The notes beneath the pieces were generated by a model that was not told the DNA's origin, made no database searches, and was given only the letters and a program-made list of their open reading frames with translations. Source: an uncultured Bacilli bacterium (lineage in GTDB: Bacteria > Bacillota_I > Bacilli_A > RF39 > UBA660). From it: 64,000 bases of DNA. Position 1 is the first letter of the stretch; the number at the start of each line of letters is the position of its first letter. Both the position numbers and the translations under genes were made by a program. Shown one piece after another: positions 27,757 to 35,868 of the stretch. The stretch is taken from contig CAKOIJ010000001.1 in NCBI GenBank assembly GCA_934086775.1, positions 4,141 to 68,140 on the forward strand. The letters are read 5' to 3'.

Positions 27757-27782
27757 TTTTTACCTCCTATATTCAAATTAAA

Positions 27783-27802
27783 GAGTGGCCTTTTATGCCA
27801 CT
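27783..27802 (-). promoter_or_regulatory. GC-rich leader hairpin (GAGTGGC-N7-GCCACTC) in the rimP-nusA 5' UTR, candidate NusA-autoregulatory terminator
   Basis: Lies between the predicted promoter and the rimP SD AGGAGG. Followed by a U-rich stretch on the minus strand. Confidence 0.4.
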
Positions 27803-27818
27803 CCTTCAAGTAACTATA

Positions 27819-27847
27819 ATTATACAACAATTATTACTTATATGCAA
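27819..27847 (-). promoter_or_regulatory. Sigma-A promoter TTGCAT-17-TATAAT for rimP-nusA-ylxR-infB-rbfA
   Basis: Minus strand ttgcatataagtaataattgttgtataat directly upstream of the leader hairpin. Confidence 0.5.
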
Positions 27848-27874
27848 GTTTTTTATTTGGTACTTTATATTGTA

Positions 27875-29380
27875 CTAATTATAAACTATCTCGTAAGGGC
27901 TTTCTGAACTTCCATTTCCTGAAGAATATGGAACTTCTGCCTTAATTGATATAACAGGGCGGACACCATAAGCAGTGGTCACATTGCCGTCGTCTAATCT
28001 ACCCGGATTGCGCGAACCGTAAACACCAAATGAGCCAGCATTAGCACCATTCCAGTAGGTAGGAGACAAAAGCCACCACCATGTACTTCCTGTTATACTT
28101 GAACCAGTACTATTTAAATAATACCATACTGATGGATTGTTAGTCCATGCTAAACCTCCTGCATAACTAACTTCATCTGCTGTCATGAGTCCTATTGGAT
28201 GTGTTAGTTTTGCTTTTGCATTACTTCCTGAAAATGCATCTTCTGGTGTAGTACAATCGTATGTTGGTGTTTTTTTACTTGCTAGTCTACCATATGCCAT
28301 GTAGTTAAATCTTTCACTTCCTGCTGCACTATATGTTCCATTTGCTACATTTCTATCATTACAGTATATCGCTTCTGTACTTAAGTATTTTGTATAACTT
28401 GTTAAGTTATTACTATACCATTTATCTATTACTCCTTTTACTACACTGCTATTTGTATTTTTACGATTATTTTCTAAAGACCCACTTATTCCATACATAT
28501 AACCTACATACATTGAATCATTAGATGTACTATTGAATTTACTTGTACCTATATATCCACTTGTTGTATCAGGACTTGTTCCTGAATACAAAAGTCTAAT
28601 ACTTCCATCATGATTTGTTCTTATTATTCTCCAGTAAAATCCTGCAAATTTTACCCAGTTATTAGTAGGATTCCCTGCAAAGTAATATACATCTTTTGTT
28701 GGTCCTCCTGTTATACTTTCAGTACTCTTAAATAATGTACCAGTTGTATCACTTGTAAATATTGAACTAAATGATGTTCTTGTTCCTCTTGTTTGATTAT
28801 CATTTAGTATTTGCCATCCCAAAGTACCTTCTTCATATTCTCCATGTATATTCTCTGTTCCTTTTTCTATATACAATGAACCACTTAATACTTTACCCAT
28901 ATCTTCACTTTGATCTACTACTAAAGTATCTATATATTTAAATTCTATACTATATGAGTGAGTTTTACCTTTTGCTATTTCTACACTATGGGCTAAAACT
29001 GTATCAGTAGTTGAACTTCTTTTAGGTACATCTTTAAACTCACTCATATTGTATCCACCATCAGTACTAGTTATTTTGTATACTAAATATCCTTTTGTAA
29101 TAAAAGTATTTACTAAATCTTTTATTACTATATTGTATTTATATGTACCATCACTTTCATTCTTTACTGTGAATGTACTTATACCACTTGACCAACCTGG
29201 TACTATTTCTGAACCTGCTATTGTACCTGTACCACTGTTAAATACTATCCTAAGATTAGCACTGTCAACTGAAACTTCTTTTTCTTTTCCAAGTATTTCC
29301 ATTGAAAACCATGCTAAACTAACTGATAATACTATTACTAACAAACTCCCTAATATAATTAATAATTCTTTCTTTTTCAT
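27875..29380 (-). CDS. Secreted TasA/camelysin (M73)-like protein with SipW-cognate-type signal motif (…SLAWFS…), paralogue 1, 501 aa
   Basis: N-terminus MKKKELLIILGSLLVIVLSVSLAWFS. N-terminal domain pattern (VFNSGTGTIAGSEIVPGWS…FTVKNESDGT) resembles TasA/CalY. Paralogous to 33794..35320 including the C-terminus …VRPVISIK…SPYEIVYN. Confidence 0.55.
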   Translation of the reverse strand: MKKKELLIILGSLLVIVLSVSLAWFSMEILGKEKEVSVDSANLRIVFNSGTGTIAGSEIVPGWSSGISTFTVKNESDGTYKYNIVIKDLVNTFITKGYLVYKITSTDGGYNMSEFKDVPKRSSTTDTVLAHSVEIAKGKTHSYSIEFKYIDTLVVDQSEDMGKVLSGSLYIEKGTENIHGEYEEGTLGWQILNDNQTRGTRTSFSSIFTSDTTGTLFKSTESITGGPTKDVYYFAGNPTNNWVKFAGFYWRIIRTNHDGSIRLLYSGTSPDTTSGYIGTSKFNSTSNDSMYVGYMYGISGSLENNRKNTNSSVVKGVIDKWYSNNLTSYTKYLSTEAIYCNDRNVANGTYSAAGSERFNYMAYGRLASKKTPTYDCTTPEDAFSGSNAKAKLTHPIGLMTADEVSYAGGLAWTNNPSVWYYLNSTGSSITGSTWWWLLSPTYWNGANAGSFGVYGSRNPGRLDDGNVTTAYGVRPVISIKAEVPYSSGNGSSESPYEIVYN

Positions 29381-29413
29381 ATAGACTTCCTTTCTTTTTT
29401 AGACACTAAAAAA

Positions 29414-29436
29414 AGATAGATTTAAAAAATCTATCT
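29414..29436 (-). terminator. Leader terminator/attenuator hairpin AGAUAGAUUU-UUUAA-AAAUCUAUCU followed by U7, immediately upstream of the RBS of paralogue 1
   Basis: Perfect 10-bp inverted repeat plus U-run on the minus-strand RNA. Covaries with the copy-2 hairpin. Confidence 0.55.
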
Positions 29437-29467
29437 CATTAAAGCACATGAAAAACCAGAAGGTTTA

Positions 29468-29533
29468 CTAGTTATTAATAATAACCCCCCCCCCTAGTAC
29501 TTTATTTTGTACATATAGGCTGTTGTTTTTCAT
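29468..29533 (-). CDS. Leader peptide uORF (21 aa, MKNNSLYVQNKVLGGGVIINN) containing the poly-G tract
   Basis: SD AAAGGAGA 5 nt upstream of the ATG. Conserved in copy 2 (MKNSNLFVQNKVLGGG…). Confidence 0.45.
   Translation of the reverse strand: MKNNSLYVQNKVLGGGVIINN
29485..29494 (-). repeat. Homopolymeric tract C10 (G10 on the coding strand) inside the leader uORF
   Basis: Seen directly. The only long G/C homopolymers noticed in this roughly 25% GC window are at the equivalent position of both paralogues. Confidence 0.9.
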
Positions 29534-29571
29534 GTTTTTCTCCTTTGTTATTTGTAGCTTCCTACAATAAA

Positions 29572-29628
29572 ATAATACCACAAAAAGTATTAGTTTACAA
29601 GTATTATTTTCTTGTACTTTTTGTGGTA
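29572..29628 (-). promoter_or_regulatory. Sigma-A-like promoter (TTGTAA-17-TATTAT, 29572..29600) embedded in a 14-bp-arm palindrome TACCACAAAAAGTA-N24-TACTTTTTGTGGTA (29576..29628), a candidate operator
   Basis: Seen on the minus strand. Identical arrangement upstream of paralogue 2. Confidence 0.45.
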
Positions 29629-29632
29629 CTAA

Positions 29633-30214
29633 TTATTTCTTCATTATTAATTTAATATTATTTTCTTTAGAAGAATCATTATTTAGTAATTCTTCTTTTC
29701 TAATTTCAAACATTCTTATACTTTTTTCTTTAAGATCATTTATTTCATAAATTATTTCATTTTCTTTAGATATTCTTTTAGTTTTTTCTAGCTCTAATTC
29801 TTTTAAAGTTTTTTCTTTTTCTAACTTAATGTTATTTAAATACTTGCTAAGTTCTTTAACTTTAGAGTCATATTTATGAGCATAAACAAGAGTTAATATA
29901 AATACAAATACATTTACTCCTGATAAAAGAATTGTACCAACTATATTAATAAAACCACCTAAATTTAATGGGATAATTCCAAGTGATAAAACCGAAATAA
30001 TAAGTAAAAGTTTATTAAAACCTTTAATATCTTTTCTTAAATTTAATAGTTTTATATTATTATTTCTTATTTCTTTATCAAGAAGTTCTATTTTATTTTC
30101 AAGTAAAGGCTCATTTTCATTAAAATTCTCTACTATTTTAACATTTCCATACTCATTAACAATTGCAGTTTTATCTTTAGTGACATGCATGTATTCTTTA
30201 TTCATATAACCCAC
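29633..30214 (-). CDS. Hypothetical membrane protein with coiled-coil segments (193 aa)
   Basis: Central TM helices flanked by K/E-rich heptad-like regions. Confidence 0.45.
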   Translation of the reverse strand: MGYMNKEYMHVTKDKTAIVNEYGNVKIVENFNENEPLLENKIELLDKEIRNNNIKLLNLRKDIKGFNKLLLIISVLSLGIIPLNLGGFINIVGTILLSGVNVFVFILTLVYAHKYDSKVKELSKYLNNIKLEKEKTLKELELEKTKRISKENEIIYEINDLKEKSIRMFEIRKEELLNNDSSKENNIKLIMKK

Positions 30215-31183
30215 CTATTTATTTATGCTTTTTTTAAATGCTTCATACATTTTATTTAAAGTACTATCTTTAATTTCAAAATTAGCTTCATCTCTCATAA
30301 TTATAAGAGTTTTTTGATAATAATTAGTATCCTCAGTTTTCTTTTTTTGTACAACTTTACTTACTAATCTATCTTTAATATTAGACATTTCTTCTTTATT
30401 TAAAGTTTCTGTTCTATAAATAACATGATAACCATATGTAGTTTGAACAGGAGTAGTACTATATTTACCATCTTTTAAAGCTCTAGCGGCTTTAGTAAAA
30501 CTTTCTTCATAAGAAGAATCAAATTCTACATTAAAACTTTCAGTAGTGATATCATTCTTATATTTAGTTTTAATCTTTTCCCAACTAGTACCTTTATCAA
30601 GTTCTTTAATAATCTTTTCTATTTTTGCTTTAGCTTGATCAGTAGTCATATTTTCACCTGTTTTAACTAGAATATGCTCTACTTTAAATGGTGCAAAATA
30701 ATTATCTTTATAATAAGATTCTACTTCTTTATCAGTTACATTTTTAATTAAATATTCTTCTACATATTTATTTCTCTTATAATCAAGTTCTAAATATTTA
30801 AGAAAATTTTCTTCTGTATCAAAATTATATTGTTTTAAAAATTCTTCTTTAGATAATTGATAATATGTTTCATAATTTTTATAATAATTTTCAGCAGTTT
30901 CTTTAATAGACTTATTGTCTTCTTCTGTTAAATTATATTTTTCATCTAATATAACTCTGTCAGTGAGTTCAATTAAGCCTTCTACTCCATACTTATTTCT
31001 TAAATTTTCATACATATTATCTGCAGTAATATTTGTTTTACCAACGGATGCTGCCACTTCTTCACCATTTTCTAGTTTAGCAATTCTTTTAGGCCATACT
31101 ACAAGTACAACTATGATTGTTAAAAGAATACCAACTAATAACCCTTTTAATTCTTTACTTCTTTTCTTTAAAATTTCTTTCAT
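30215..31183 (-). CDS. prsA: PrsA-like foldase / PpiC-type peptidyl-prolyl isomerase
   Basis: N-terminal membrane anchor, SurA_N-like region, parvulin motif …TTYGYHVIY…. Confidence 0.7.
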   Translation of the reverse strand: MKEILKKRSKELKGLLVGILLTIIVVLVVWPKRIAKLENGEEVAASVGKTNITADNMYENLRNKYGVEGLIELTDRVILDEKYNLTEEDNKSIKETAENYYKNYETYYQLSKEEFLKQYNFDTEENFLKYLELDYKRNKYVEEYLIKNVTDKEVESYYKDNYFAPFKVEHILVKTGENMTTDQAKAKIEKIIKELDKGTSWEKIKTKYKNDITTESFNVEFDSSYEESFTKAARALKDGKYSTTPVQTTYGYHVIYRTETLNKEEMSNIKDRLVSKVVQKKKTEDTNYYQKTLIIMRDEANFEIKDSTLNKMYEAFKKSINK

Positions 31184-31247
31184 TTATATTCCTCCTAAAC
31201 TCATTGTACTATATTTTTTATTATTTTACAAATTTTTCAGAAGATTT

Positions 31248-31847
31248 TCATCTATTTAACACTTTACTAACTGGATTAAATGATTTTCTATGGTATTTAC
31301 TTGCCCCATATTTTTCTAATGCTTCAATATGTTTTTTAGTTCCATACCCTTTATTATTCTTTAAATCATACATAGGATATTCTTCATCCATTTTAATTAG
31401 TAAATGATCTCTTGTAACTTTAGCTATAATACTAGCTGCTGCTATAGTTTCACTTAAAGCATCTCCTTTTATAATAGAAGTAGTAGGAATATCTATGTCA
31501 AGTTTCATTGCATCTATTAAAATATGCTCTGGTGCTACATCTAAATTACTGATGGCTTCTTTCATAGCAATTTTAGTTGCTTCGTAAATATTTACTTCAT
31601 CTATAACTTTCTCGCTTACTATTCCAAGGCCTATACTAAGTGCATTATCTTTTATAATAGTATATAGCTCTTCTCTTTTCTTTTCAGTTAATTTCTTACT
31701 ATCTTTTATATCCTTATGAAAGAAATTAACTGGTAAAATAACTGCACATGCCACTACTGGTCCTATTAAAGGACCTCTTCCCACTTCGTCAACACCTGCA
31801 ATTAATGTTTTCCCTTCTTTATATAGTTCATTTTCATATTCAAGCAT
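31248..31847 (-). CDS. rnhB: Ribonuclease HII (start taken at MLEYENELYK…)
   Basis: IAGVDEVGRGPLIGPVVACAVIL motif. Upstream extension in the track overlaps dxs. Confidence 0.85.
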   Translation of the reverse strand: MLEYENELYKEGKTLIAGVDEVGRGPLIGPVVACAVILPVNFFHKDIKDSKKLTEKKREELYTIIKDNALSIGLGIVSEKVIDEVNIYEATKIAMKEAISNLDVAPEHILIDAMKLDIDIPTTSIIKGDALSETIAAASIIAKVTRDHLLIKMDEEYPMYDLKNNKGYGTKKHIEALEKYGASKYHRKSFNPVSKVLNR

Positions 31848-33690
31848 TCTTTCCAACTTCTTTCTTAATTCTATTATATAACGAATCTTTATCAAGTGAA
31901 AGTTCTTTTAATAATTCTTCCCTATTACCTTGCATTACAAACTTATTCTCTATACCCATAATAATTATTTCTTTATTTGTCAAAGTTTTTAAATAACTTC
32001 CTAAAGAACCTACTTTCATACTTTCTTCATATACTATAATTTTTTTGTTCTTTTCAAGCACTTTATTAAAATAATCATAATCAATTGGTTTTAAAAATCT
32101 AGCATTAACTAGTTCTACATTAATATTTTCTCCTCTTAGTTTATTTACTACTTCTAGACTTTCATTAACAAAATCTCCATATGTTATAATTGTTAAATCC
32201 TTTCCACTTGTTATCTGTTCCCATGAACCTATCTCAATTTCTTTAGGTTTATCTTTTAAATATTTAACTTTCTTTTTAGAATATCTAATAAAAAAAGGAC
32301 TATTACTTTTAATAGCGGTTTTAAGTAAATTAGTTAATTCTATACTATCCTTAGGAGAAGTAATAATTAAATTAGGAAGTGGAAGTGAAAATGTTAGATC
32401 AAATACTCCCTGATGTGTCTCTCCATCTTCTCCTACTATACCACATCTATCTACCCCTATAATAACATGAGAATTCATCCTTGATATGTCGTGAACTATC
32501 ATGTCATATCCTCTTTGCATAAAGCTAGAATATATACTTACAAAAGGAATAATCTTATTTAAACTTAAACTGTTGGCTAGAATTAAAGCGTGTTCTTCTG
32601 CAATACCAGTATCAATAAACTGATTAGGAAATTTTTCTTTATATTTTGTTAATTTTGAACCAACTTCCATTGCTGGTGTAATAACCATTAATTCTTTTCT
32701 ATTTAATCTAACTAATGAATCACACATTATTTCACTATAACTTACTAAATCACTTTTACCTAGAAATTCTCCTGTTTTTTTATTAAATGCAGGTACTCCA
32801 TGCCAAAGTCCTTTCTTATCATTCTCAGTAAATTTATAGCCTTTTCCTTTTTCTGTTATAACATGAATTAAAACGGGTCCTTTTGCTTCTTTAGCCATTT
32901 TTAAATAACTTTCTAGTTCACAAAAGTCATGACCATTAATAGGGCCATAATAATCTATTCCAAACTCTTCAAAAAGATATCCTTCTTTTATATATAGTTT
33001 CTTAATACTTTCTTTTATTAAATGCATAAACTTAACTAAATATTTTCCTATAAAAGGAACTTTTATTAAAAACCTTTTAGTTCCATTCTTAGCTAAATCA
33101 TATCTTTTATTACTTCTTAATTTATCTAAATAATTATGGAGAGCGCCTACATTCTCACTAATACTCATATTATTATCGTTCAAGATAATGATCATTTTAG
33201 ATTTGACTTCTCCAATATGATTTAATGCTTCATAGGAAAGTCCATTAGAAATAGAAGCATCTCCTATAACTGCTACTACATTATAATCTTCTTTATACTT
33301 ATCTCTTGCAATTGCAAAACCAAGTGCACTACTTAAACTAGTTGAAGAATGTCCTGCTTCATAACAGTCATAAACGCTTTCACTTCTCTTTTGAAAGCCA
33401 CTTAAACCATTTATTTTTCTTAAATTATCAAAATCTTTACTCCTACCAGTTAAAATCTTATGAGTATATGCTTGATGTCCTACATCAAATATAACTTTAT
33501 CCTTAGGTAAATTAAAAACTCTATCTATCATTATAGTTAACTCGACTACTCCTAGATTACTAGATAAATGGCCACCATTTTTAGATACTTTGTCTATAAT
33601 AAATTCTCTTATATCCTTAGCGAGGACTTCTAATTCTTTGTAACTCATCTTCTTTAAAAATTTGGGATCTTTTATATCATATAAATTCAT
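31840..33690 (-). CDS. dxs: 1-deoxy-D-xylulose-5-phosphate synthase
   Basis: 616 aa. TPP-binding GDGxxxxG-like (GDASISNGLSYEALN), transketolase-like domains. Confidence 0.9.
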   Translation of the reverse strand: MNLYDIKDPKFLKKMSYKELEVLAKDIREFIIDKVSKNGGHLSSNLGVVELTIMIDRVFNLPKDKVIFDVGHQAYTHKILTGRSKDFDNLRKINGLSGFQKRSESVYDCYEAGHSSTSLSSALGFAIARDKYKEDYNVVAVIGDASISNGLSYEALNHIGEVKSKMIIILNDNNMSISENVGALHNYLDKLRSNKRYDLAKNGTKRFLIKVPFIGKYLVKFMHLIKESIKKLYIKEGYLFEEFGIDYYGPINGHDFCELESYLKMAKEAKGPVLIHVITEKGKGYKFTENDKKGLWHGVPAFNKKTGEFLGKSDLVSYSEIMCDSLVRLNRKELMVITPAMEVGSKLTKYKEKFPNQFIDTGIAEEHALILANSLSLNKIIPFVSIYSSFMQRGYDMIVHDISRMNSHVIIGVDRCGIVGEDGETHQGVFDLTFSLPLPNLIITSPKDSIELTNLLKTAIKSNSPFFIRYSKKKVKYLKDKPKEIEIGSWEQITSGKDLTIITYGDFVNESLEVVNKLRGENINVELVNARFLKPIDYDYFNKVLEKNKKIIVYEESMKVGSLGSYLKTLTNKEIIIMGIENKFVMQGNREELLKELSLDKDSLYNRIKKEVGKNA

Positions 33691-33774
33691 TACTACACTC
33701 CAGTTATTAAATTATAGTTTATTTTTTTAATTTTATCAATATAAAAGACATTTAACCTTTACATAGATAAATAA

Positions 33775-33795
33775 AAGTGCAATTTCTTGCACTTT
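33775..33795 (-). terminator. Intrinsic terminator AAGTGCAA-TTTC-TTGCACTT for paralogue 2 (overlaps its stop codon)
   Basis: Hairpin followed by a U-rich run on the minus strand. Confidence 0.55.
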
Positions 33796-35320
33796 AATTA
33801 TAAACTATTTCGTATGGGTTTTCTGAACTTCCATCTCCCAAAGAATATAGGGCATCTATCTTAATACTGATAACTGGTCGAACAGCATTTTGAGTCCTAG
33901 AAGTATTATATACTAAAGCACCATTATATTCTTCTTTAGCTGGATAATAATTAATACGAGCAAGTGCCGCATAATAATGATGCTCAGAATCACTAAAAAA
34001 ATATCCGCCTGGGGAAATAGTCCACCATACTGTTTTTTTCGAAACAAACTCGCTTTTACTGTTCAAATTAAACCATAAGTATGAGTTCAATAAACTTGTT
34101 CCAGCTTTACCACCTGCATAAGCTATCTCATCAGCTGTCATTAGTCCTATTGGATATGTTAATTTTGCTTCACTATTACTTCCTGAAAATGCATCACTAC
34201 TATCTTCACAATTATATGTTGGATTTCCTGCTCTTAATCTTGTATATACATAGCAGTTAAAAGAACTACTGGCATTATAACTTGGTGCTTTTCTATCATT
34301 ACAATAGACTGCTTCTGTACTTATGTATTTTGTATAACTTGTTAAATTATTACTATACCAGTTATCTATATATGTTTTTATAGTACTATTATTTTCATTT
34401 GTTCTATTGCTTTCAAGACTTCCACTTGTTCCATACATGTATCCCACATACATTGGGTCATCATATGTACTATTGAATGCGCTTTTTCCTATATAACCCT
34501 GAGTTGTATCAGGACTTGTTCCTACATAAAGCATTCTAATACTTCCGTCTGCATTTGTTCTTATTATTCTCCAGTAGTATCCTCCAAATTTAACCCAGTT
34601 GTTAGTAGCATTTCCTGCAAAGTAATACACTATTTCAGGTGTACTTCCTGCTATACTTTCAGTACTTGTATAAAGCGTTCCTGTATTAGTAGAATTAAAT
34701 GTATTTGAAAAGTCACTTCTTACTCCTCTTACTGGATTATCTTCTAGTAATTTATACCCAAGTGTTCCTTCTTTATAATCTCCGTGTAATTTTATTTCAT
34801 TATTATCTATATATAGTGTTCCGGATAGCTCTTTTCCCATATCTATATTTTGATTTTCAGTTTCACTATTTAAATATCTAAACTCTACATTATATGTATG
34901 AGTTTTATTCTTTTCTATATTTATATTATATCCTAGTGTCATATCTGTACTTATACTGCTTTTAGGTACATCTTTGAAGTCACTCATATTGTATCCACCA
35001 TCAGTACTAGTTATTTTATATTGTAAGTATCCTGTTGTTACAAAAGTATTTATTAAATCTTTTATAACTATGTTATATTTATAAGTACCATTACTTTGAT
35101 TTTTAACTGTAAAAGTATTTACTCCGCTACTCCAACCTGGTTCTATTTCTGAACCTGCTATTGTACCACTTCCACTAGCAAAAACTATTTTTAACTCTGC
35201 ACTAGATGTAGATACATTAGAGTTTTTACTATTAATAGTTGTACTAAAATATGCTATTGATACTGATAGTACTACTACTAATAAACTTCCTAATATAATT
35301 AATAATTCTCTCTTTTTCAT
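33794..35320 (-). CDS. Secreted TasA/camelysin (M73)-like protein with SipW-cognate-type signal motif (…SIAYFST…), paralogue 2, 508 aa
   Basis: N-terminus MKKRELLIILGSLLVVVLSVSIAYFS. Collinear similarity to 27875..29380 over the full length. Confidence 0.55.
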   Translation of the reverse strand: MKKRELLIILGSLLVVVLSVSIAYFSTTINSKNSNVSTSSAELKIVFASGSGTIAGSEIEPGWSSGVNTFTVKNQSNGTYKYNIVIKDLINTFVTTGYLQYKITSTDGGYNMSDFKDVPKSSISTDMTLGYNINIEKNKTHTYNVEFRYLNSETENQNIDMGKELSGTLYIDNNEIKLHGDYKEGTLGYKLLEDNPVRGVRSDFSNTFNSTNTGTLYTSTESIAGSTPEIVYYFAGNATNNWVKFGGYYWRIIRTNADGSIRMLYVGTSPDTTQGYIGKSAFNSTYDDPMYVGYMYGTSGSLESNRTNENNSTIKTYIDNWYSNNLTSYTKYISTEAVYCNDRKAPSYNASSSFNCYVYTRLRAGNPTYNCEDSSDAFSGSNSEAKLTYPIGLMTADEIAYAGGKAGTSLLNSYLWFNLNSKSEFVSKKTVWWTISPGGYFFSDSEHHYYAALARINYYPAKEEYNGALVYNTSRTQNAVRPVISIKIDALYSLGDGSSENPYEIVYN

Positions 35321-35343
35321 AATGACTTCCTTTCTAACACGAA

Positions 35344-35372
35344 AAATAGATAGACTAAAAGTCTATCTATTT
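35344..35372 (-). terminator. Leader terminator/attenuator hairpin AAAUAGAUAGAC-UUUUA-GUCUAUCUAUUU followed by U5, upstream of the RBS of paralogue 2
   Basis: 12-bp inverted repeat. Stem-top sequence differs from copy 1 but pairing is preserved. Confidence 0.55.
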
Positions 35373-35461
35373 AATACACATGAAAAACTAGAGTTATTAG
35401 TTGTTAGTAATAACCCCCCCCCCAAGTACTTTATTTTGTACAAATAGGTTGCTGTTTTTCA
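35363..35461 (-). CDS. Leader peptide uORF (32 aa, MKNSNLFVQNKVLGGGLLLTTNNSSFSCVLNR). Its stop lies inside the terminator 5' arm
   Basis: SD AAGGAGA upstream. G9 tract puts the frame one position off relative to copy 1. Confidence 0.45.
35414..35422 (-). repeat. Homopolymeric tract C9 (G9 on the coding strand) inside the leader uORF
   Basis: Seen directly. Confidence 0.9.
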
Positions 35462-35540
35462 TGTTCTTTGTCTCCTTTGTTTTTTTGAAATATATGTACC
35501 ACATTATGTACACTACATTTCTTATATTTTCTTACAATAA

Positions 35541-35597
35541 AATAATACCACAAAAAGTATTAGTTTACAAGTATTATTTTCTTATACTTTTTGTGGT
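35541..35597 (-). promoter_or_regulatory. Sigma-A-like promoter (TTGTAA-17-TATTAT, 35541..35569) embedded in palindrome TACCACAAAAAGTA…TACTTTTTGTGGTA (35545..35597)
   Basis: Sequence identical to the copy-1 promoter/palindrome. Confidence 0.45.
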
Positions 35598-35868
35598 ACT
35601 AATGCGTAGCAATTTTTAAAATTGGTTTTAATAATAAAACTACTTATGATATAGTTCATAAGTTTTTCAAATGGGGGTCAATTAAAAATAAACACCAAAT
35701 CAACTTGATCTGGTGTTTATCAGCACAATACGGACTGAGTGAATACCTAACGAGCAAAAGCTAGGTAATACTCATTTTATTTGTCCTTTAATATTATATG
35801 AAGCATTTCTTCATGTATACATGATATCATTTGTATCAAATAATATCAAGTACTTTATATTGTGCTTA

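Follow-up and report, generated by a model that had tools for sequence, protein, structure and literature searches.

Introduction

Repeat tracts that control phase variation are known from promoters. In the poly-G contingency loci of Campylobacter jejuni the tract lies in the regulated coding sequence itself (PMC11955535). This study describes two related genes (gene 1 and gene 2) on a 64-kb stretch of contig CAKOIJ010000001.1 from an uncultured Bacilli bacterium, hereafter the window. Both encode predicted secreted proteins, and each is preceded by a leader in which a G10 tract lies within a short upstream open reading frame (uORF). The two genes probably belong to a phase-variable family of surface lectins, in which gene 1 is diversified by a diversity-generating retroelement (DGR) and both genes are controlled by an attenuator that is set through slippage in the uORF.

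Like the C. jejuni loci (PMC11955535), this class of leader has tracts of G8–G11 in a low-GC genome, varies in tract length between populations while the flanks that were checked are identical, shifts a reading frame and is associated with surface structures. Unlike those loci, it carries the tract in a separate uORF of 18–33 codons upstream of an intrinsic terminator. As the tract lies outside both the regulated gene and its promoter, the frame would act by attenuation and not by truncation of the product.

Leader-peptide attenuation is known from pyrBI and trp of Escherichia coli, and the classical attenuators sense metabolites. The leaders described here share with these systems a Shine–Dalgarno (SD) sequence with a short leader open reading frame (ORF), an intrinsic terminator just upstream of the gene, and a layout in which the position of the ribosome would decide the outcome. 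They differ in that the input would be a heritable change in DNA length and not the level of a metabolite or tRNA, and in that no antiterminator was seen; its place is taken by a helix (P1) that can cover the start codon of the uORF. Variable surface-protein families are also known, as Vlp, Vsa and Vsp, in Mycoplasma. The present family resembles these in belonging to small-genome, host-associated bacteria related to the Mollicutes, in forming large sets of paralogs and in that its members would switch singly, through simple repeats or recombination. Its proteins, however, are not lipoproteins, the switch would reside in a uORF and attenuator and not in a promoter spacer or coding sequence, and a DGR diversifies the tip.

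DUF6273 has been reported from gut phages as a domain of DGR targets that resembles C-type lectins, in proteins termed ‘tentaclins’ (PMC10743442), and a DGR architecture with a MutS-like (MSL) accessory gene was described by Wu et al. (PMC5758913). Gene 1 is comparable with C-lectin DGR targets such as Mtd of the Bordetella phage and TvpA of Treponema (PMC5758913; PMC10743442), having a C-terminal variable region (VR) of 120 nt, differences at adenines only, an Asn-rich template repeat (TR) and a GC-rich end. The cassette of MutS-like protein, Avd and reverse transcriptase (RT) found at a related locus (L081) matches the MSL type (PMC5758913), and the DUF6273 match over the VR is that of the tentaclins (PMC10743442). 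In contrast to known DGR targets, gene 1 has no adjacent cassette and joins its lectin-like module to a secreted N domain of TasA-like kind, and in this family the module is often in tandem, with many family copies per genome. No description of the uORF–poly-G–terminator arrangement was found in the literature searched, the incomplete coverage of which means that this is no proof of novelty. As far as can be told, the fusion of a TasA-like N domain to DGR-target lectin modules and the leader cassette both appear new, while the DGR itself is of a known type.

Results

The duplicated locus

The window has a GC content of about 25%, and the genes of this region lie almost all on the minus strand. 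The proteins encoded by genes 1 and 2 align from end to end with 60% identity and 73% positives (E = 0), and are thus the collinear pair of 501 and 508 residues that an earlier note on this DNA had recognized. The note had also proposed that a whole unit of promoter, about 250 bp of conserved leader, gene and terminator is duplicated on either side of a prsA–rnhB–dxs block. The duplication is borne out by the leader DNA, which is conserved over some 250–280 bp and more strongly than the coding sequence. Three repeat blocks in the leaders, of 82, 75 and 82 nt, are 94%, 89% and 72% identical, while the coding blocks reach 77–84%. The unit extends from about 27876 to 29633 and from about 33795 to 35603, and leader 2 contains an insertion of about 30 nt relative to leader 1. 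The terminator is the part of the description that has to be given up, as a clear one follows gene 2 and none comparable is present after gene 1. The genes prsA, rnhB and dxs do lie between the two copies, together with an ORF of 193 aa. A tblastn search of the window revealed no third copy of the family.

A conserved leader with a poly-G uORF

Both leaders contain the same cassette, which reads 5′ to 3′ as promoter, SD and uORF with G10 tract, 3′ strand of helix P1, terminator, SD of the gene and gene (Table 1). The gene's own SD is located directly behind the leader terminator. Apart from the two G10 tracts the window has no run of eight or more G, and 0.04 such runs would be expected in 64 kb at this base composition. 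Downstream of the tract the sequence TTATTAYTAA provides stop codons in two frames. In minimum free energy (MFE) folds the start region of the uORF pairs with the P1 3′ strand, and in leader 1 this duplex has a predicted free energy (dG) of −14.1, against −6.5 for shuffled sequences. Neither leader matched an Rfam family when the whole region was searched.

The promoter-like site is overlapped by a perfect 14-bp inverted repeat, which is present in both window leaders and at six further loci, each time upstream of a poly-G leader (eight entries, of which L078 is another assembly of the gene 2 locus). This repeat could be the terminator of the upstream gene, an insulator or an operator.

At least 27 related loci and nine metagenome contigs carry the same cassette in front of family genes, always on the strand of the gene and with tracts of G7–G11. 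About 12 of the 28 family genes with intact 5′ ends possess it. Across 33 aligned leaders the ATG of the uORF is invariant, with an SD visible upstream at the right spacing. Helix P1 (10–15 bp) is likewise present in all 33, the uORF start pairing with a segment 13–30 nt behind the tract, and its dG of −10 to −17 kcal/mol compares with −5 to −7 when the sequences are shuffled (mean z = −3.7). It occurs in two registers, CAUGAAAAAC/GUUUUUCAUG and AAAACUAUGA/UCAUAGUUUU, with compensatory variants that include CUAUGG/CCAUAG and CAUAUG/CAUAUG. In this alignment 96.4% of the cells of the terminator helix are paired, and five of its ten pairs show compensatory changes. Its covariation of 0.434 exceeds that of shuffled alignments (0.138; reached in 0 of 500) and of slid controls (at most 0.155). 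The inner part of the stem, ATAG/CTAT, is nearly invariant.

The reading frames behind the tract are arranged in a consistent manner. By the logic of the sequence, the length of the tract sets the uORF among three frames. Two of these stop within 1–18 nt behind the tract in 27 of 28 leaders, and the third stays open for 36–58 nt before it stops in the 5′ arm or the loop of the terminator. Shuffled sequences reproduce this pattern in 7–16% of trials per leader, and it is seen in about seven of the nine sequence subtypes. Of 27 assembled leaders, about 6 have the long frame. Both window copies, with G10, are in a short frame; for either leader a tract of G9 or G12 would give the long one.

Some leaders depart from this plan. 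At L071 (1835–1844) a G10 tract lacks the usual uORF SD and terminator and is followed by a GC-rich hairpin, and at L053 (5896–5902) only a G7 tract followed by TCAG is present and the long frame passes the terminator. These two leaders may be decayed switches. The poly-G leader also drives a two-gene operon (L057:4329-7161, L062 and L064), in which a gene for an 80-aa XRE-type helix–turn–helix (HTH) protein precedes that of a family member of about 824–830 aa with a longer, different N-terminal region. The family member P0015 has instead a divergent HTH_3 gene and no poly-G tract (L091–L096).

Variation in tract length

Alleles of one locus of this leader class were available from six metagenome samples. 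This orthologous locus (P0072, P0040 and P0059; 746 aa; upstream of an RNase R gene) belongs to a related species, and its tract is the variable element, with lengths of G8, G8, G9, G10, G10 and G11. Downstream of the tract, 125 nt show no difference between the samples. Upstream of it, all six agree over the 60 nt compared, and five of the six over 240 nt. The resulting uORFs have 20, 20, 18, 33, 33 and 21 codons, and it is the 33-aa form that gene callers have annotated. A G10 tract is also found at L080 and L081, upstream of a gene that is 90% identical but has a different genomic context.

The conserved folding of the leader also allows another interpretation, namely that it is a structured cis-regulatory RNA, either riboswitch-like or bound by a protein. 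Helices P1 and P2 and a helix formed by the G tract would then be the sensing structure and the terminator its expression platform, while the uORF would be untranslated and the variation in length tolerated as noise. The strong and conserved three-way fold with covarying P1 and terminator would be explained in this way, and so would the constraint that pairing places on the sequence around the uORF start. The predicted folding energy hardly differs between G8 and G11, and some family genes share a transcript with an HTH regulator or have one in divergent orientation. This reading is opposed by a canonical SD at the right spacing before an ATG that is invariant in the aligned leaders, and by stops in two frames right behind the tract while the third is open exactly to the terminator in 27 of 28 leaders. 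A run of ten G in a genome of 25% GC would be costly unless its instability were useful, the alleles of a single locus cover all three frames, and no Rfam family matched the leader. This interpretation is therefore regarded as unlikely, and a uORF that is read by ribosomes is preferred.

A DGR variable region in gene 1

The C-terminal end of gene 1 contains a stretch that aligns over 120 nt, without gaps, to a TR at L081 (ENA ERZ27287232, k141_271517). The TR begins with TGGCTTTTGTCTCCTAACTACTGGAATGGTACTAATGC and its Asn-rich translation is WLLSPNYWNGTNANSFDVNGSNNPGKLDNNNVTNTNGVRP; the GC-rich end is GGTGTCCGCCCT. The two sequences differ at 15 positions, each of them an adenine in the TR (ten A>G, three A>C and two A>T), and agree at every one of the 85 positions where the TR has another base. 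With 35 adenines among the 120 TR bases this distribution has a probability of about 1e-8. As every mismatch falls on a TR adenine, the VR would have been written by mutagenic retrohoming. The binding tip of gene 1 is hence likely to be a product of a DGR of the MutS-like, Avd and RT type that lies outside the window.

The target gene at L081 (P0003) is 90% identical to gene 1. Directly downstream of it are encoded a 132-aa protein with a MutS_I domain (42 bits), a 121-aa bAvd-like protein and a 447-aa RT of the RVT_1 family (72 bits), followed by the 120-nt TR. This complete MSL-type cassette (L081:1762-4060), with its TR downstream of the RT, thus adjoins a family gene. The RT has a weak C-terminal MutS_I match. 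The order MSL–bAvd–RT recurs at L104. Since the cognate cassette is not beside gene 1, this target is either remote, and acted on in trans, or orphaned.

Outside the VR, gene 1 and the L081 gene are only 91.5% identical and form a mosaic. A nucleotide profile of gene 1 (27875–29380) against L081:156-1658 shows blocks of 100% identity (nt 361–720) alternating with blocks of 87–92%. Such a pattern suggests that paralogs or strains have exchanged sequence through recombination or gene conversion. More than 2300 homologs of the RT were matched, on contigs of up to 1.29 Mb. Two of these, P0309 and P0378 (53% identity), lie on contigs of 1.25 and 1.29 Mb, which suggests that carriers of this type of DGR have near-complete, very small genomes.

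A large family of secreted proteins

More than 7800 homologs of the two proteins were matched. In data with one genome per species, 160 stretches confirmed by tblastn encode relatives, and 77 loci were kept. Most of the matched proteins have about 814 aa and join the N domain of the window genes to two tandem C units of about 310 aa; other members have two such units behind a different N-terminus. Carriers include the uncultured Tenericutes bacterium UMGS1658, ‘uncultured Bacilli’ metagenome-assembled genomes (MAGs) from the Hadza gut, Clostridium sp. CAG:628 and UBA11492; MAGs of the CAG-628 type are probably placed in the order RF39 by GTDB. Some related MAGs (UMGS1658, CAKOIS) contain at least 13 family loci per genome, often at contig ends. 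Both genes are likely to be paralogs within a lineage-specific and very large family, the members of which are secreted surface proteins of uncultured, low-GC, small-genome gut bacteria of the Bacilli/‘Tenericutes’ type. The earlier note, in which they were two alternative fibre subunits, therefore understates the case.

The region behind the N domain had been taken for an extension of about 330 aa without a known domain. It is better described as a repeatable module of about 310 aa, as homologs carry it once or twice. The last 70 or so residues of gene 1 match DUF6273 (E = 2e-4, 21.5 bits against a cutoff of 23.5, profile positions 103–171 of 172), and DUF6273 is matched by five of seven C modules, at the VR region only. 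A profile of the C module gave no match in the PDB. From these comparisons the module is probably a ligand-binding unit with a DUF6273-like C-terminal tip.

The N domain is of a different kind. An AlphaFold2 (AF2) model based on a 23-sequence alignment (mean predicted local distance difference test score, pLDDT, 81.7) begins with an N-terminal helix, behind which about nine strands form a β-sandwich. Residues 25–37 behind the helix have low pLDDT; they are compatible with a free N-terminal strand and give no evidence for one. When residues 1–190 were used as query, an exhaustive search gave 1207 representative clusters with proteins of 170–920 aa, in all of which the domain is N-terminal while the C-terminal partners vary. 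Proteins of 170–185 aa that consist of the N domain standing alone also exist. The consensus of the domain is ..G.SYAYF...I.PGWS..KTF.V.N.G...DQS.DMGK.FSG.

Putative cleavage motifs are SLA↓WFS in gene 1 and SIA↓YFS in gene 2, with SYA↓YF as the family consensus; the mature proteins would then begin with WFSMEIL... and YFSTTIN..., respectively. The earlier note had assigned these signals to the SipW-cognate class and seen a TasA/M73 pattern over about 150 residues, for which it proposed searches with the Peptidase_M73, TasA and TIGR04088 models. The window proteins themselves match none of these. There was no hit to PF12389 (Peptidase_M73) in Pfam at E ≤ 1, where noise alone accompanied the sub-threshold DUF6273 hit, none to TIGR04088 or TasA and nothing else relevant in NCBIfam, and no solved structure in the PDB was found by sequence. 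At E ≤ 1, Peptidase_M73 is matched by 14 of 23 relatives, and when ten were scanned singly three exceeded its curated cutoff (22.5 bits), all matches being confined to profile positions 3–84 of 196. In NCBIfam the BsaA SipW-dependent model is matched by 4 of the 23 and the TasA model by 3. A profile search brought up TasA chains (8aur, 5of1) at E = 0.17, and hhalign against TasA of Bacillus subtilis gave a probability of 79.7% over residues 4–80, the TasA sequence used being consistent with the PDB fragment retrieved. Foldseek of the N-domain model against the PDB returned weak, generic β-sandwich matches, with TasA outside the top 50.

Neither tblastn nor a motif scan detected a sipW gene in the window, in agreement with the earlier note. 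In related genomes a gene for a SipW-type peptidase (TIGR02228, 102 bits against a cutoff of 51.85) lies directly upstream of family genes at L050 and L060, and near one at L034. The conserved gene order in these three genomes is typA, a queH-like gene, sipW (with a gene for a 151-aa membrane protein behind it) and the family gene (L060:1285-7137, L050:2463-7422, L034:9094-12274). The typA–queH–sipW arrangement resembles tapA–sipW–tasA, and the N-terminal hydrophobic segment of the 151-aa membrane protein ends in ..LTYIAWGK.

These data place the signal peptide and the first strands of the window proteins in the TasA class as judged from sequence, with a remote TasA/camelysin-like similarity over the first 60 or so mature residues. 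The claim of a SipW-class signal thus keeps its support from the motif, from the models matched by relatives and from sipW beside their genes, although the window proteins match no model. The TasA/M73 pattern holds, remotely, for the first 60–80 residues and not for the whole 150. SipW could plausibly process these proteins; the data fall short of placing them in the TasA family proper. Compared with TasA, CalY and BsaA (PF12389; TIGR04090), the proteins share a signal with S-x-A at its end and (Y/W/F)F behind it, the pattern PG(D/W)...F.V.N.G in the first strands and an adjacent sipW in relatives. They differ in that some 80 residues are alignable, the domain has about 150 aa against about 230 in TasA, fold searches do not retrieve TasA and a large lectin-like module is appended.

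That the pair are nevertheless TasA/CalY-like subunits of a fibre or matrix, arisen by simple duplication, processed by SipW, polymerized through a C-terminal donor strand and preceded by an ordinary 5′ untranslated region, is improbable. The remote TasA/Peptidase_M73 similarity of the first 80 or so residues and the position of sipW in related genomes would fit such a role, and the stand-alone N-domain proteins could be plain fibre subunits. Against it stand the lack of any M73, TasA or TIGR04088 match for the window proteins, the Foldseek result and a leader with a hypermutable tract. The proposed donor strand (…VRPVISIK…SPYEIVYN) is rejected, as this stretch is not a free strand; it is the end of a DUF6273-like module and, in gene 1, of the DGR variable region. 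Since most homologs contain the module in internal repeats, its C-terminus often differs from that of the protein. In TasA fibres (structure 8aur), moreover, the donated strand is reportedly N-terminal. The proteins are accordingly better described as candidate surface lectins with a remotely TasA-like N domain.

Other features of the locus

Coordinates are collected in Table 1. Between leader 1 and prsA lies the ORF of 193 aa (29633–30214, minus strand, GTG start), for which a coiled coil and a central hydrophobic stretch are predicted. Within its 5′ end a weak Rfam match to the ribosomal S15 leader (30137–30213, minus strand; 21.8 bits, where the gathering score is 39.5, and E = 0.14) is probably due to chance. 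The segment between gene 1 and rimP (27757–27874, minus strand) contains a promoter-like TTGCAT-17-TATAAT, then a hairpin AGTGGC..GCCACT with a T-rich tail, and may be a separate attenuator for the rimP–nusA–infB operon.

Table 1. Positions in the window of the two genes, their protein domains and the parts of their leaders
Feature	Position	Strand	Description
Gene 1	27875..29380	-	501 aa; signal peptide, small β-sandwich N domain and one DUF6273-like C module
Signal peptide/N-terminal hydrophobic helix, gene 1	29312..29380	-	MKKKELLIILGSLLVIVLSVSLA↓WFS, putative SipW-type cleavage site; helix 3–29 in AF2 model
N domain, gene 1 (aa ~27–175)	28856..29302	-	β-sandwich, about nine strands; AF2 core pLDDT >90
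C module, gene 1 (aa 186–501)	27878..28825	-	repeatable unit of ~310 aa, last ~70 aa match DUF6273
DGR variable region, C-terminal end of gene 1	27956..28075	-	encodes WLLSPTYWNGANAGSFGVYGSRNPGRLDDGNVTTAYGVRP; 120 nt ungapped against TR L081:3941-4060
Leader cassette 1, whole	29381..29633	-	direct repeats shared with leader 2
Promoter-like site, leader 1	29572..29600	-	TTGTAA-17-TATTAT with TG extension (TGgTATTAT); consensus scan; counterpart in leader 2
14-bp inverted repeat	29576..29628	.	TACCACAAAAAGTA..TACTTTTTGTGGTA; perfect; -35 hexamer in 25-nt loop; overlaps extended -10
uORF 1	29468..29533	-	21 codons, MKNNSLYVQNKVLGGGVIINN*; SD AAAGGAG at 29540-29546
G10 in uORF 1	29485..29494	-	homopolymer
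P1 3′ strand, leader 1	29447..29456	-	GUUUUUCAUG; pairs with uORF start region 29525-29534, CAUGAAAAAC, in MFE folds
Intrinsic-terminator-like hairpin and U7, leader 1	29407..29436	-	U-run 29407-29413; dG −9.7; long-frame stop TAG 29431-29433 in 5′ arm
Gene 2	33794..35320	-	508 aa; architecture as gene 1; C-terminal region without match to known TR
Terminator after gene 2	33774..33795	-	no counterpart behind gene 1
Leader cassette 2	35321..35603	-	promoter 35542-35570; inverted repeat 35546-35598; P1 strands 35453-35465 and 35377-35389
uORF 2	35397..35462	-	MKNSNLFVQNKVLGGGVITNN*
G10 in uORF 2	35414..35423	-	homopolymer
Intrinsic-terminator-like hairpin and U-run, leader 2	35342..35372	-	13 pairs, dG −14.0; U-run at about 35342; long-frame stop TAG 35363-35365

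Discussion

A possible switch

The arrangement of the leader suggests how it could work. Each gene would be transcribed from its own promoter through the conserved leader, and slippage during replication would change the length of the G tract, as judged for the window from the orthologous leader with its six alleles. In the two short frames the ribosome would stop 1–18 nt after the tract, P1 would close over the AUG, the terminator would fold and transcription would cease (OFF). In the third frame the ribosome would read through the 3′ strand of P1 and stop in the 5′ arm or the loop of the terminator, so that the hairpin is blocked and the gene is read (ON). Both window copies are predicted to be OFF, since a G10 tract places them in a short frame. 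The direction of ON and OFF could be reversed, and the effect could be partly translational.

Several points weigh against this proposal. Which frame would be ON is purely a matter of inference from the sequence. No antiterminator was found in MFE folds or by inspection, one subtype showing a weak 6-bp, AU-rich possibility opposite the 5′ arm of the terminator. Ribosome-mediated antitermination requires coupling of transcription and translation, which is weak in B. subtilis and not universal in Firmicutes. P1, P2 and a G tract paired with a pyrimidine stretch could mean that the leader is primarily a structured RNA. The statistics of the frames are not fully independent because the leader subtypes share ancestry, and a poly-G leader is absent from P0015, which is the family member of highest prevalence (13 contigs). 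The window's own loci showed no tract length other than G10, be it in the window itself or in L078 and L079, these two being the same loci from one sample that is possibly the window's own source. Homopolymer lengths in short-read assemblies can also be miscalled. For the proteins, the putative C-lectin fold of the C module depends on the DUF6273 match, and the full-length AF2 model (nine-sequence alignment) reached a pLDDT of only 54 and is unusable for this module. For the DGR, neither an RT nor a TR was found in the window, the C-terminal region of gene 2 has no VR match to the L081 TR, and the close RT homologs that were looked up are from other samples and not from that of the window.

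The tract could alternatively serve a physiological, non-heritable attenuator of the leader-peptide type, in which ribosomes pause or frameshift on GGG GGG GGG, glycine codons that are rare in a low-GC organism, and read-through reports the status of tRNA-Gly or of translation. Every uORF does contain three consecutive GGG codons with a terminator downstream, in a layout like that of the classical leader-peptide attenuators. The regulated genes, however, encode surface proteins and not functions of glycine or tRNA metabolism, and no alternative antiterminator pairing was found. A sensor should moreover hold one frame, whereas alleles and paralogs occupy all three, with G7–G11. Such a sensor is very improbable. 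An origin of the genes as remnants of prophage receptor-binding proteins, to which the description of DUF6273 in phage DGR targets might point (PMC10743442), is rejected as barely credible on genomic context, given that both genes stand among core genes (rimP–nusA–infB, prsA–rnhB–dxs, rpmF), encode N-terminal signal peptides, have relatives at 13 or more chromosomal loci per genome in related assemblies and show no phage genes in the flanks that were read.

With the slippage-driven attenuator retained as the preferred reading, a fuller picture can be offered as a tentative possibility. The poly-G uORF would toggle a transcription attenuator, and the AUG-occluding ‘lock’ helix would reinforce the OFF state. 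With many copies in each genome, a few TasA-anchored lectin adhesins would be expressed at a time, in a stochastic manner and with tips rewritten by a DGR. This would constitute a heritable switch that has not been described.

Implications for the family and its hosts

The annotation of these loci can be corrected, in that a lectin-like module of the DGR-target type takes the place of the ‘extension’ of the proteins, and what some assemblies annotate upstream as ORFs of 33 aa corresponds to one frame of the proposed switch. If the mechanism holds, repeat slippage would be passed on through the frame of a uORF to read-through of a terminator, within a compact cassette of about 230 nt, and simple-repeat phase variation would be wired to gene expression in a new way. 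The signature of SD, uORF, poly-G tract and terminator would then find phase-variable genes that standard searches miss because these examine promoters and coding sequences for tracts. The organisms are uncultured and prevalent in the gut, and to our knowledge their interactions with the host, with phages and with other microbes are almost wholly undescribed. The locus points to a dominant family of surface proteins with two stacked mechanisms of diversification. If this is true, variation would act in two tiers, one setting which members of the family are expressed and the other which binding tip they carry.

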